A stretch of DNA of 14,013 nt from a virus. This document shows, one piece after another, positions 9,001 to 12,000 of the stretch; positions within the stretch are counted from its first letter, which is position 1; each line of letters starts with the position of its first letter. The stretch lies in UHGV virus genome UHGV-1734115; one strand, written 5' to 3'. The position numbers are program-made.

Positions 9001-12000
9001 TATTGACTTGTTTGCGATAAAATGTATACAAATGAGATTTTTTTCCGCTCCCGGTAGTGGAGCAAAACTAGCGAAGTCCGCATAGGTTTCAATATAATCC
9101 ACAGATGGTTTAATTTTGACCGGTTCCATAACGCCTCTCATCAAATATTGTAGGTTTTTTAATTCAATGTGTTAAATGTTGGTGGTGTGTTATTTAAAGT
9201 TATTTTGACATCCTCCACGCCCTGAAGGACGGGGCTTGTCGCGTACTTGAAGTCACAAACTTTTCAGCCACTCCCTTGCCTCGATGTCATCCAGATGACG
9301 AGATTGCTTCAGAATACCAGCCACATACTCCACCTTTGCTACTTGATGATAAGGTAACGTTATTGGCCTGTGGTCCTGGTTGATGCTTGTAAATTGGTAT
9401 TCTCCATCTCTGTCATAGCCAAGAATCTTGATCATGTTGTGTCCTTCAACGGTTCTGACAAACACCTCATCCCCCGGGAATACTTTGGTGTTAGGCTCAA
9501 TGAGTACATATTCTCCTGATTTTATTCTAGGCCACATGCTGTCTCCTTTCACACGAAGACCAAAGGCATCTGGATCATCGCTATAAATCTTGAGCCACCC
9601 ATCGCGCTCTTCGGTCATCTCGATGGCACCATCAACACCAAGAATTGCCTCACCAACCACGCGCACTAACCCTTTTCTTACCTGACCGACAAAAGTTAAA
9701 GAATCTGAGCATGATGCAATTGGTGTTACATCATGTACCAAATCAAGCCACCCATTAGGTAACCCAAGTGCGGCTTCGAATTTTCTTGCTAGTTTATCCC
9801 CTATGTTTCGAGTGCTTTTTTCACCGGAGACTTGCGTGAGTTGAGAAGGGCTAACTCCAAGCTTATCGGCAAAGCTTGCATTAGTGTTACCCGCGATTTT
9901 TTTATGCTCATCTAGCAAAAACGCCAGATTCGATTTGCGAATATCTTTGTTTTCCATCCCACGATTCTCCCTCTATTTAGCAAATGGATAAATACGCATT
10001 TTGATAAATCTCCATTGCAGTTTATTTATCAAAATGGTAAAGTTGCTCTGTGTGATAAACGGAGGCACTAATGAGTAATGAACTACTACGCTGGCGAAAA
10101 GAGGCTTCTAGTGAGGAATGGAAGCGACTCGCCGCATTAGCGAATACTTCAGTTGGCTATCTTGATCAGATTGCATATGGGTTTCGAAGAGCTTCCCCAG
10201 ATAAAGCGAATGCAATCGAAGAAGCCACTCGTAATTTCACGGGTTATAAACCTGTGAAAAAGGAAAATCTGGTGTTCGTATCGCGTAGAGCATCAGCAGC
10301 ATAAGTAACCCCGCTCTTTGTAACAACGGACATTCGTCCTACGTCGCTGAAAAGCGAATCCCAGAATATCTGACCAACCAAGGCCATATGCGTTTCCACG
10401 CATACCTTTCAACTAGCTATTCACTATTGGAAATCATAAGAAATGGAACAAACAAGTTACAGCAAACTATCCCAGCGTGACGTTGATCGCGCAGAAACAG
10501 ATTTACTCATCAACCTGTCAACGCTTACCCAGCGCGGTCTGGCAAAGATGATTGGCTGTCATGAATCGAAGATAAGCAGAACGGACTGGAGATTTATTGC
10601 TTCAGTCTTGTGTGCTTTCGGAATGGCATCAGACATCAGTCCGATTAGTAGGGCTTTTAAGTATGCGCTTGATGGAATCACAAAGAAAAAATCCCCGGTG
10701 GCCGCCGGGGACTCTAAGCAAATTGATATGCAATTCTGAGGGAATTACTGGATCAATCCACAGGAGTAATTATGACAAAACGTCGTAAGAAATACCAGGA
10801 AAAAGAAGAGATTCGACACCCTGATTCACCTGAGGGATTAGTGGTAGCCGCAGCAAATAACAGGGCGTTCGCAGAGCGCCTTGTTGGTGTTTACAGACTA
10901 GCCAAAGCAGGAGTGAAGCATGGGCGTCGTTAAGTTAGCTGATTACAGGCATAACCCTGTACAACATCAGGAGGCATCCAGTATGGGGTATGTCTCTATA
11001 CACCGCCAGTTTATGGACAGCAGGCTCTATAAGGACTCTCAGGCAGTACATCTTTGGCTTCACTTAATCCTCAAGGCTAATCACGAATCTACTGTCGTCA
11101 ATACGGATATCGGGCCGATAACTGTTGATCGCGGTCAGATGATAACTGGACGCCCGTCGCTGGTCAGAGAAACATTCATCCCCGACAACAAAGTTCGGAG
11201 CTTATTACGGACTTTTGAGTCGAAAGGGATGCTTAATATTTGCTCGATGGGGAAGAAATTTAGCCTGTTTACAATCGTTAAATATGACGATTTTCAGGCA
11301 AAAAATTGTCCAACGGTTGTCCAACGGTTGTCCAACGCAAACACCAGTAATGGCGCGGCTCTCAGCGGAGATTGTCCAACGGTTGTCCAACGGTTGTCCA
11401 TAAACAATAATATAAATAATATCTCTAATACTGACGTATTAGAGAGTGCCACAGCAGACAAAAAGTCTGACAAGAAAAAACCTTCCGTCAGCTGTCAGGA
11501 TGTTGTCGATGCTTACCACGAAATCCTTCCTGAAGCGCCAAGAATCCGCGCACTGAATGACAAGCGTAAAAACCAGATCCGAACGTTCTGGCGCAAAGCC
11601 GGAGTAATAACACGCCAACTTGACGGGCATGGGTTCACGATGCAGGACTGGAGAAATTATTTGAGCTACGTTGGCGAAAATTGCCGATGGATGTTCGAAG
11701 AGCGCCCAAACCATCAACGCGGAACCGTCTGGCACAAAAAGGGATTTGATTTCCTGCTTAACGATAATACCTACCTGAAAGTTCGTGAGGGTGAACACGA
11801 TGACCGATAATTTTTATGCGCCGCCCCATAGCATCGAGGCAGAGCAGGCGGTGATTGGTGGATTGCTTCTGGATGATGACAGCAGTGAGCGCGTCCAGAA
11901 AGTTCTGGCGATGCTGAAGCCTGATTCATTTTACAGCCGACCACACAAAATCCTTTTCGAAGAAATAACCAGAATGCACCGGGAGCAAAAGCCAGTAGAT

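Follow-up and report, generated by a model that had tools for sequence, protein, structure and literature searches.

Why does the replication initiator gene of a temperate phage carry a run of short direct repeats in its middle? The question arises in the virus genome UHGV-1734115, of which we analysed a stretch of 14,013 nt (the window). A preliminary description had read the repeats and the AT-rich DNA beside them as an origin of replication. Taken together, the repeat array, the AT tract and an adjoining palindrome very probably constitute the theta-replication origin of a P22/Sf6-like temperate phage, placed in the linker-coding part of the phage's own initiator gene. The features are listed in the table.

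Table. Features of the putative origin region (window coordinates)
Feature	Position	Strand	Details
Replication initiator gene, 296 aa	10920..11810	+	ORF; N-terminal winged-helix-like predicted origin-binding domain aa ~27-127, disordered linker aa 131-188, C-terminal domain aa 189-293
Iteron triplet 1	11306..11338	+	TTGTCCAACGG, TTGTCCAACGG, TTGTCCAACGC; core positions 2-9 fixed in 66 distinct near-identical genes
33-bp spacer, three slots of the lattice	11339..11371	+	length conserved, sequence variable
Iteron triplet 2	11372..11404	+	TTGTCCAACGG, TTGTCCAACGG, TTGTCCATAAA; final unit merges into AT tract
AT-rich tract, presumed DNA unwinding element	11400..11421	.	1 G/C base (C) in 22
Perfect palindrome	11422..11445	.	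TCTCTAATAC-tgac-GTATTAGAGA; 10-bp arms, 4-nt centre
DnaB-like replicative helicase gene	11800..13236	+	Pfam DnaB E 3.5e-31, DnaB_C E 3e-60; start as in Sf6 gene 44

The initiator gene is 99% identical to gene 43 of Shigella phage Sf6, and among PHROG families it matches phrog_345 best ('replication initiation O-like', E 5.8e-85). Neither Pfam nor a PDB sequence search nor Foldseek assigned the protein to a specific family; the Foldseek matches were weak and of a generic winged-helix kind (E 0.03-0.15). Domain boundaries were taken from an AF2 model, in which pLDDT fell below 50 at aa 131-188 (nt 11310-11483). The array is located in the part of the gene coding for this disordered linker, between the winged-helix-like N-domain and the C-domain. 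The start of the helicase gene overlaps the stop of the initiator gene, with no ORF or loader gene between them, and in HK620-type phages the helicase gene is co-inherited with the initiator C-domain.

The sequence from 11306 to 11404 consists of TTGTCCAACGG, TTGTCCAACGG, TTGTCCAACGC, 33 bp, and then TTGTCCAACGG, TTGTCCAACGG, TTGTCCATAAA, which confirms the six 11-bp units reported earlier as three, a 33-bp spacer and three more, the last degenerate. Since the unit starts are 11, 11, 44, 11 and 11 bp apart, all six units lie on a single 11-bp lattice. At up to one mismatch, the unit occurred 5 times in the 14-kb window, every time within the array, against a chance expectation of 0.22; this count was reached by none of 200 shuffles of the window, and no further copy of the unit was found outside the array across the 14-kb early region. 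The array is in frame within the ORF and encodes the peptide CPTVVQRLS twice, again as described before. When folded as a single strand, it showed no significant structure (z -1.1). Eleven base-pairs do not make an exact helical repeat; 66 bp correspond to ~6.3 turns of relaxed B-DNA.

Two other ways of dividing the array were considered and dropped. A dyad, CAACnGTTG, spans the unit junctions and might have been the true iteron, but ENT47670 and L092 alter bases of the dyad and retain TGTCCAA. The idea of nine lattice slots, the central three filled by degenerate units, does not apply generally: the sole CCA in the spacer of the window is one base off the lattice, and a seventh on-lattice CCA was confined to part of the loci whose core is TTACCAGC or TGTCCAGC (HK620/L004, L104, L105 and L097).

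The element had been drawn from 11306 to 11432. These limits hold for the repeats and the AT-rich DNA (GC 0.175 over 11400-11439), but the right-hand end cuts the palindrome. In all relatives compared, an AT-rich tract was found at a fixed distance from the repeats. As a DNA hairpin, the palindrome has a dG of -7.8 kcal/mol on the plus strand and -8.4 kcal/mol on the minus strand (z -4.4 and -5.0, respectively), and a perfect stem of 9-10 bp was present at 24 of 24 enterobacterial-type loci. When 15 sequences of the palindrome were aligned, 96.7% of cells paired and 8 of the 10 pairs were altered on both sides, a result matched by 0 of 500 shuffles. This pattern indicates that compensatory changes maintain the palindrome. 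It stands on the right-hand side of the AT tract and belongs to the same element as the iterons.

The reading of the repeats as a putative origin is already known. Sf6 gene 43, gene O of coliphage HK620 and gene 18 of Salmonella phage L contain the same element, annotated as a putative origin: the Sf6 record has a rep_origin at 28385-28480, which corresponds to 11305-11400 of the window, the HK620 record has one in two pieces, and the phage L record has one as well. The 11-bp repeat has been named in print for phage L (PMC8022706). In phage L, (T/A)TGTCCAACGG units stand in the identical 3+33+3 layout, which HK620 also has with a TTACCAGC core. The three annotations cover the repeats only, without the AT tract and the palindrome; otherwise we see no substantive difference. 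The finding is therefore correct but ordinary, and its value as a discovery is small. No binding or replication experiment on this origin type was found in the literature searched.

Comparison with related phage initiator genes, as proposed in the preliminary description, supported the origin reading. The 3+33+3 layout was kept in the 24 relatives, from Edwardsiella to Thorsellia; gaps of exactly 11, 11, 44, 11 and 11 bp, the 44 leading from unit three to unit four, were found in 23 of the 24. The cores fell into seven types (TGTCCAAC, AATCCAA, GGCCAA, TGTCCAGC, TTACCAGC, TTACCAAC and TGCCAAC), each paired with a diverged N-domain, so that the repeat core changes together with the N-terminal DNA-binding domain. 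Within the predicted recognition helix (residues 89-101), the residues RS, KA, QY and KY follow the core type. HK620 O and the window initiator, for instance, are 46% identical in the N-domain and ~98% identical in the C-domain. HK022, HK620 and VT2-Sakai-type phages resemble the window only rightwards from ~11400, a mosaic junction, and the iterons therefore travel with the N-domain.

Variability within the population was taken from a viral-contig search with the full-length alignment, which returned only near-identical loci. In the 66 distinct genes of this set, all 48 core sites were invariant, whereas 19 of the 51 sites at unit edges and in the spacer varied (Fisher p = 5.6e-7); 11 of the 33 spacer sites and 0 of 17 AT-tract sites were variable. 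Outside the cores, no part of these genes varies more than the surrounding linker. Copy number varies naturally. Variants with one and with three triplets exist in bacterial genomes (3, 6 or 9 units; +/-66 bp), so the sequence can persist without the 3+3 form. We inspected the surroundings of one prophage with a single triplet and found them disrupted by an IS element. Isolated phages yielded no single triplet: all 26 records that matched the 165-nt probe in full were of the 3+3 form, the match falling into two pieces across 231 bp.

Which kind of protein would read these repeats? Lambda O and P22 gp18 both match PF04492 (Phage_rep_O) with E <1e-35, whereas the window initiator gave no Pfam match to this family even at E up to 10. 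Compared directly with lambda O, it scored E 4.6 by BLASTP and E 0.17 by hhalign (probability 0.3%). Homology to lambda O and to the N-domain of P22 gp18 was rejected, no similarity being detectable. The N-domain did match G38P of Bacillus phage SPP1 (aa 2-111; hhalign probability 98.9%, E 1.8e-17, 29% identity over 107 columns), and both the window initiator and G38P cross-match phrog_2514 and phrog_186. The N-terminal DNA-binding domain is thus homologous to that of SPP1 G38P and not of the lambda-O type. This is of modest value, as the label 'O-like' is applied routinely to such proteins. Iterons with an AT-rich unwinding tract inside the initiator gene, the core of the earlier proposal, are supported by the Sf6, HK620 and L annotations, by the comparative data and by the homology to G38P.

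Could the repeats be significant for the protein they encode and for nothing else? On that view CPTVVQRLS would have a role in the protein, for example as a motif containing Cys, and an internal duplication would have produced the DNA periodicity as a side effect. The array is indeed in frame with the peptide encoded twice, and the +/-66-bp variants mean that the segment duplicates or is deleted as a unit. Yet the units of a triplet lie in three different reading frames and their cores are invariant even at third codon positions, whereas neighbouring linker codons vary at positions 1 and 2. The peptide of relatives is wholly different (VPADYQQIT in HK620) with the 11-bp layout kept, and the segment is predicted to be disordered. 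In one assembly (P0039), a -1/-11 frameshift pair rewrites the peptide and leaves the gene open, an anecdotal case from a single contig. We consider a coding role of this kind very improbable. That initiator binding at the repeats serves chiefly for control (autoregulation, titration, handcuffing or incompatibility), with the true origin elsewhere, is better described as quite unlikely. Natural copy numbers of 3, 6 or 9 units would suit such sites, and plasmid iterons and ectopic ori-lambda copies are known to titrate their initiators (PMC3349717; also the title of PMC4488673). Against control sites speak the AT tract, which always lies at a fixed distance as expected of an unwinding element, the confinement of the unit to one place in the 14-kb early region, and the homologous SPP1 system, where in-gene repeats plus AT tract suffice for origin function.

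The palindrome and AT tract could instead form an intrinsic terminator of leftward (minus-strand) transcription, or a hairpin of the rightward mRNA, and be no DNA-level origin element. A consensus scan marks 11445->11422 plus TATTATTTAT as terminator-like on the minus strand, the phage L record has a minus-strand terminator over the same bases, and compensatory changes alone fit RNA and DNA pairing alike. However, only 3 of the 10 stem pairs are G-C and the dG is modest, and the Sf6, HK620 and L records have no annotated leftward transcription unit downstream. Moreover, G-U pairs make up 1 of 145 paired cells, at the outermost pair, which fits an exact duplex-DNA dyad and not an RNA-only helix, and the lambda origin has an inverted repeat with 12-bp arms at the corresponding place. 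A terminator is on balance improbable. Recruitment of the host DnaA in place of the phage initiator is hardly credible. It would draw on the agreement of 6 of 9 bases between TTGTCCAAC and the DnaA-box consensus TTATCCACA, but the core becomes TTACCAGC, AATCCAA, GGCCAA and so on in Enterobacterales hosts with the same DnaA specificity. Because the core changes together with the phage N-domain, DnaA boxes were rejected.

An origin read by the phage's own initiator could work as follows. The N-domain would bind one core of 7-8 bp (TGTCCAAC) per 11-bp unit, head to tail; we infer this orientation from the direct order of the repeats and from the lack of conservation of the junction dyad in relatives. 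Two loaded triplets may then form a higher-order complex, which would distort the supercoiled DNA and open the AT tract next to it. Recruitment of the phage's own DnaB-like helicase would fall to the C-domain, which is evolutionarily linked to the helicase gene, and no loader protein would be needed. Beside the melted tract, the palindrome is probably structural DNA (a hairpin or cruciform) aiding helicase loading or priming, and this is the least certain step. The putative origin type is common in P22-like and Stx-associated lambdoid prophages, which lends the locus some modest value. For the question of how a phage positions its helicase on DNA without a loader, ready-made mutants are also at hand in the conserved 3+33+3 lattice, in the natural variants with 3, 6 and 9 units, and in the palindrome with its compensatory changes.

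The parallel with lambda drawn in the preliminary description stands for the architecture and falls for the binding domain, which is without a PF04492 match. As in lambda, iterons, AT-rich tract and inverted repeat follow one another in this order inside the initiator gene, between the parts coding for the DNA-binding and C-terminal domains (PMC5043065). The lambda iterons, however, are four units of ~19 bp with an internal dyad that O dimers bind, whereas the window has 11-bp direct repeats; the 11-bp unit is plausibly explained by a binding domain that is not of the lambda-O type. Lambda also recruits the host DnaB through P, whereas the window phage encodes its own helicase. P22 shares the gene order, with an in-gene ori (gene 18) followed by a DnaB-like helicase (gene 12) without a loader gene, and the C-terminal domains of the two initiators are weakly similar (25% identity, E 2e-4). 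It differs in that gp18 has a lambda-type PF04492 N-domain and ~20-bp TCGGTAAAAC-containing repeats. For the unit itself, a geometric analogy is offered by PhoB on pho boxes, where a 7-bp conserved core and a 4-bp variable part make an 11-bp unit that a winged-helix domain reads head to tail; PhoB is a transcription factor rather than an initiator, and the comparison implies no homology.

SPP1 offers an experimentally studied counterpart. Its origin, too, is contained in the initiator gene, just past the part coding for the N-domain, with direct repeats of 11-bp period, then an AT-rich unwinding element, and a DnaB-family helicase gene downstream. GACA cores occur at 544, 555, 566 and 577 of the SPP1 locus (L116), at the 11-bp period and followed by the AT tract, within the cloned oriL (35801-36151). 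The oriL fragment (350-356 bp) supported replication and was bound by G38P in experiments, the in-gene repeats and AT tract being sufficient (PMC5737612). There are also differences. SPP1 has one run of 4-5 units with the GACA core, in contrast to the 3+33+3 of the window phage; a separate helicase loader, G39P, encoded by gene 39 between initiator and helicase, which is absent from the window; and a C-terminal Phg_2220_C domain in gp38 (PF09524, E 2e-20) that the window initiator lacks. Its AT tract is not followed by a palindrome, nor is that of the Paenibacillus relatives, and the palindrome is therefore not essential to all origins of the G38P type. Speculatively, and with rather less than even confidence, we suggest that SPP1 oriL and the enterobacterial origins of the HK022/Sf6/L type may belong to a single deep 'G38P-type' class with a mechanism unlike that of ori-lambda. 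Winged-helix monomers would then line up head-to-tail on an 11-bp lattice, in place of dimers on dyad iterons, and the strictly maintained palindrome, with its T(A/G)A(C/A) centre, might be a structure-specific site at which the initiator C-domain loads the DnaB-like helicase without a loader.

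The preliminary description had placed six 11-bp direct repeats in two triplets, followed by AT-rich DNA, inside the initiator gene, and this anatomy was borne out. The unit starts are separated by 11, 11, 44, 11 and 11 bp, so that all six units lie on a single 11-bp lattice. At ≤1 mismatch, the unit had five matches in the 14-kb window, every one inside the array (0.22 expected by chance; 0/200 shuffles reached five), and no further close copy was found elsewhere in the window. GC is 0.175 across 11400-11439. The array is in frame with the initiator ORF and encodes the peptide CPTVVQRLS twice, as had been stated. 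The extent proposed earlier held for the array and the AT tract but not for its right-hand end, which splits a perfect inverted repeat.

Features of the window, with gene order and predicted domains of the initiator
Feature	Position	Strand	Details
sRNA-Xcc1 (Rfam RF02221)	779-868	-	62.9 bits (gathering score 53); between two anti-repressor-like genes
Lambda_thermo (Rfam RF01804)	6126-6184	-	cIII thermoregulator element; 88.5 bits (gathering score 50)
cI-type repressor	9253-9957	-	First in gene order
cro-like gene			After cI-type repressor
cII			PF05269; after cro-like gene
Terminator-like hairpin	10715-10688	-	Strong; 11 pairs (6 G-C), then T run; within 3' end of cII
53-aa ORF			Between cII and initiator gene
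Initiator	10920-11810		296 aa; phrog_345, E 5.8e-85
N-domain	aa 27-127		Folded, helix-strand-wing; pLDDT 73-91
Linker	aa 131-188 (nt 11310-11483)		Disordered; pLDDT <50
C-domain	aa 189-293		Folded
Six-unit array	11306-11404		11-bp units
Triplet 1			TTGTCCAACGG, TTGTCCAACGG, TTGTCCAACGC; then 33-bp spacer
Triplet 2			TTGTCCAACGG, TTGTCCAACGG, TTGTCCATAAA; after spacer
AT tract	11400-11421		1 G/C base in 22; final unit extends into tract
Inverted repeat	11422-11445		Perfect; TCTCTAATAC-tgac-GTATTAGAGA; directly right of AT tract
DnaB-like helicase gene			After initiator; start overlaps initiator stop
HNH endonuclease gene	13318-13929	+	203 aa; directly after helicase gene; AP2 DNA-binding domain (PF13392 E 8e-16, PF00847 E 1e-7, phrog_99)

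The window covers the early region of a temperate phage, P22-like or lambdoid. The hairpin inside cII probably terminates an oop-like antisense RNA, since the oop terminator of the P22 record occupies the matching position. Where Sf6 and P22 carry ninA and ninB, directly behind the helicase gene, the window carries the HNH gene, which looks like a homing-endonuclease insertion. The start codon of the initiator varies among annotations, from the ATG at 10920 (Sf6) to Met22, 63 nt later at 10983 (phage Huey); disorder is predicted for residues 1-26.

The element is already known, both from annotated putative origins and from a published description. Phages Huey, HK106, mEp234, IME10, Sf6, HK75 and others carry initiator genes with 98.5-99.2% identity to that of the window. 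The rep_origin of the Sf6 record (28385-28480, noted as 'putative; repeat region reminiscent of the phage lambda origin; similar to phage HK620') corresponds to window 11305-11400; the HK620 record has a rep_origin in two pieces inside the O gene, and that of phage L a 'putative origin of replication' at the equivalent position. A full-text search with the repeat string returned no additional relevant paper, and the literature searched held no experiment on an origin of this type. What we contribute is the assignment to a G38P-type instead of a lambda-O-type family, the extension of the element to take in the palindrome, and comparative support.

Variability was counted in 66 distinct near-identical initiator genes from IMG/VR. 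None of the 48 iteron core sites (positions 2-9) varied, against 8/18 edge sites (positions 1, 10 and 11) and 11/33 spacer sites (core versus edge plus spacer, Fisher p = 5.6e-7). The AT tract (0/17) and the palindrome (0/24) were invariant as well; the N-domain varied at 27/386 sites and the C-domain at 35/365. Since 11 bp is not divisible by three, the units of a triplet occupy three different reading frames and the invariant cores therefore cover third codon positions too; the linker codons adjoining them vary at positions 1 and 2. This comparative evidence argues that selection acts on the DNA, not on the peptide. In an AlphaFold2 model of the initiator (22-sequence alignment), the segment with pLDDT <50 corresponds to the DNA that holds iterons, AT tract and palindrome. 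In a variant initiator from a single 5.5-kb Logan contig (P0039), the protein sequence points to the apparent loss of 1 base ahead of the array and of one 11-bp unit within triplet 2. Triplet 1, the spacer and the start of triplet 2 would therefore be read in another frame (IVQRLSNGCPTQTPVMARLSAEIVQRLS), and the gene is still open. This suggests that the linker peptide is unconstrained; alternatively, it could reflect an assembly error.

The preliminary description had proposed a comparison with related phage initiator genes. Scanning the N-domain alignment against one genome per species gave 22 loci (Edwardsiella, Citrobacter, Dryocola, Ewingella, Biostraticola, Kosakonia, Enterobacter, Pantoea, Erwinia, Thorsellia and Paenibacillus); with phage L, HK620 and ENT47670, a further relative, added, there were 24 enterobacterial-type loci. 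The gaps were exactly 11, 11, 44, 11 and 11 in 23 of these, and in each the array begins straight after the conserved N-domain end KYD(D/E)(F/Y)Q. The cores fall into group-specific types, TGTCCAAC (window), AATCCAA, GGCCAA, TGTCCAGC, TTACCAGC (HK620), TTACCAAC and TGCCAAC, with CCA as the sole common part. Every core type is paired with a diverged N-domain, and residues 93-94 of the predicted recognition helix (aa 89-101; RS or KS, KA, QY or KY) appear to track the core type. In HK620-type and some TGTCCAGC-type arrays (L004 1136-1146; spacers of relatives L097 and L105), the 33-bp spacer opens with a seventh, degenerate unit whose CCA keeps to the lattice (AAAGCCAGCAA, AAATCCAGTAA), filling the first slot; the corresponding CCA of the window spacer is one base off.

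For HK022, HK620, VT2-Sakai, Stx1 phage, phage 86, numerous PA-series phages and numerous Stx phages, the match begins only at query base 481 (window 11400) and runs rightwards. Throughout this group it spans 11400-11810 at 96-97% identity and continues into the helicase gene. A sharp mosaic junction lies at ~11400, and to its left the N-domain and iterons are a different allele in this group. HK620 O is 46% identical to the window initiator in the N-domain and about 98% in the C-domain; this difference and the start of the match at 11400 indicate that iterons and N-domain are inherited together. A second co-travelling block consists of AT tract, palindrome, C-domain and helicase. Two relatives, from Dryocola (L093) and Pantoea (L107), have the N-domain, iteron array and palindrome joined to a different C-terminal region (…PEAAIQ.PKGDKWG…), which is presumably similar to the C-domain of lambda O; in that case, three or more types of C-domain would occur together with the origin module.

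Initiator versions of 318 and 274 aa, and of 299 and 277 aa in Salmonella, were found by protein search. At the DNA level these differ by exact steps of ±66 bp, the size of a triplet together with a spacer. Nine units, 3+3+3, are present in the 318-aa version (22 clusters; L111/L112 3388-3552), and a single triplet in the 274-aa version (L113/L114 3388-3420). All 26 isolated phages matching the full single-triplet probe had the 3+3 form. In the single-triplet prophage context inspected (same arrangement in L113 and L114), an IS4-family element lies between cro and cII. Lambda-type origins have 4 to 6 iterons in nature, and two are the minimum in vitro (PMC7466680).

As single-stranded DNA, the palindrome has a folding energy of -7.8 kcal/mol on the + strand and -8.4 kcal/mol on the - strand (z relative to shuffles, -4.4 and -5.0). 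A perfect stem of 9-10 bp around a 4-nt centre, T(A/G)A(C/A), is present in all 24 enterobacterial-type loci; it usually lies 17-22 bp past the last unit, and its arms vary among loci (CTCTCTTAC/GTAAGAGAG, ACTTACTACC/GGTAGTAAGT, ATCATTATC/GATAATGAT, CTCAATACC/GGTATTGAG). Across 15 distinct sequences, 96.7% of cells are paired and both sides have changed in 8 of 10 stem pairs; 0/500 shuffles attained the observed pairing or covariation score, and slid controls paired at 28-48%. The only G-U pair is in the outermost position, a pattern that agrees better with exact dyad symmetry of the DNA duplex than with a helix formed in RNA alone. Palindrome and AT tract were called a minus-strand terminator by a consensus scan and by the phage L record, but just 3 of the stem pairs are G-C, and the annotations place no leftward transcription unit downstream of the palindrome; we regard a terminator as a minor alternative to a DNA structural element.

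A lambda-type N-domain was ruled out. The initiator had no Pfam match even at E up to 10, whereas lambda O and P22 gp18 each carry PF04492 (E <1e-35). BLASTP against lambda O gave E 4.6, and an N-domain profile built from 17 sequences scored E 0.17 against lambda O and 0.029 against P22 gp18 (probabilities <2%). The likeness to P22 gp18 is confined to the C-domain and weak (25% identity, E 2e-4). Foldseek matches were limited to generic winged-helix proteins, among them MarR, ArsR, CodY and TubR (E 0.03-0.15). The same profile matched gp38 (G38P) of Bacillus phage SPP1 with 98.9% probability (E 1.8e-17, 29% identity over 107 columns). The family phrog_345 carries the label 'replication initiation O-like' and is a mosaic: both P22 gp18 (PF04492 N-domain) and the window initiator (G38P-type N-domain) match it full length, apparently through their shared C-domain, and the label therefore conceals two unrelated origin-binding domains.

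The array and AT tract are very probably a phage replication origin, as first proposed. The anatomy, its conservation and the co-variation of cores with the N-domain are established; the N-domain is homologous to an origin binder of proven function, and the C-domain is co-inherited with the helicase. We envisage that each 11-bp unit has its core bound by an N-domain, in head-to-tail order because dyad symmetry at the unit junctions is not conserved. Loaded triplets would form a higher-order complex on supercoiled DNA, the AT tract would melt, and the C-domain would hand over the phage DnaB-like helicase directly, with the palindrome as a structural element at the bubble edge. We hold the stoichiometry and the hairpin role with far less confidence than the origin itself.

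SPP1 oriL lies inside gene 38, where G38P binds repeats ('AB boxes') followed by an AT-rich unwinding element, and theta replication proceeds in vitro from a 356-bp oriL fragment when G38P, G39P and G40P are supplied (PMC5737612; PMC6316719). Just after the N-domain coding part, SPP1 has the repeats GAAACGACAGA, GAAACGACACG, AAAAAGACACG, AAAAAGACACA and GAAACGGATAA, with GACA cores at 544, 555, 566 and 577 of the SPP1 locus (L116), an 11-bp period, and an AT tract next; this stretch lies within the cloned oriL fragment (35801-36151). The preliminary description had rightly set the 11-bp unit apart from lambda iterons. Given the N-domain homology and the shared period, this unit is most simply a property of the G38P-type binding domain. 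The two systems differ in that SPP1 has a separate loader gene and another C-domain; the 3+33+3 layout is found in the window system, not in SPP1, and the palindrome follows the array in neither SPP1 nor the Paenibacillus locus. Lambda has an inverted repeat with 12-bp arms and a 4-nt centre at the equivalent place. The comparison with lambda drawn at the outset holds for architecture but not for ancestry, PF04492 being absent and the N-domain profile matching SPP1 G38P.
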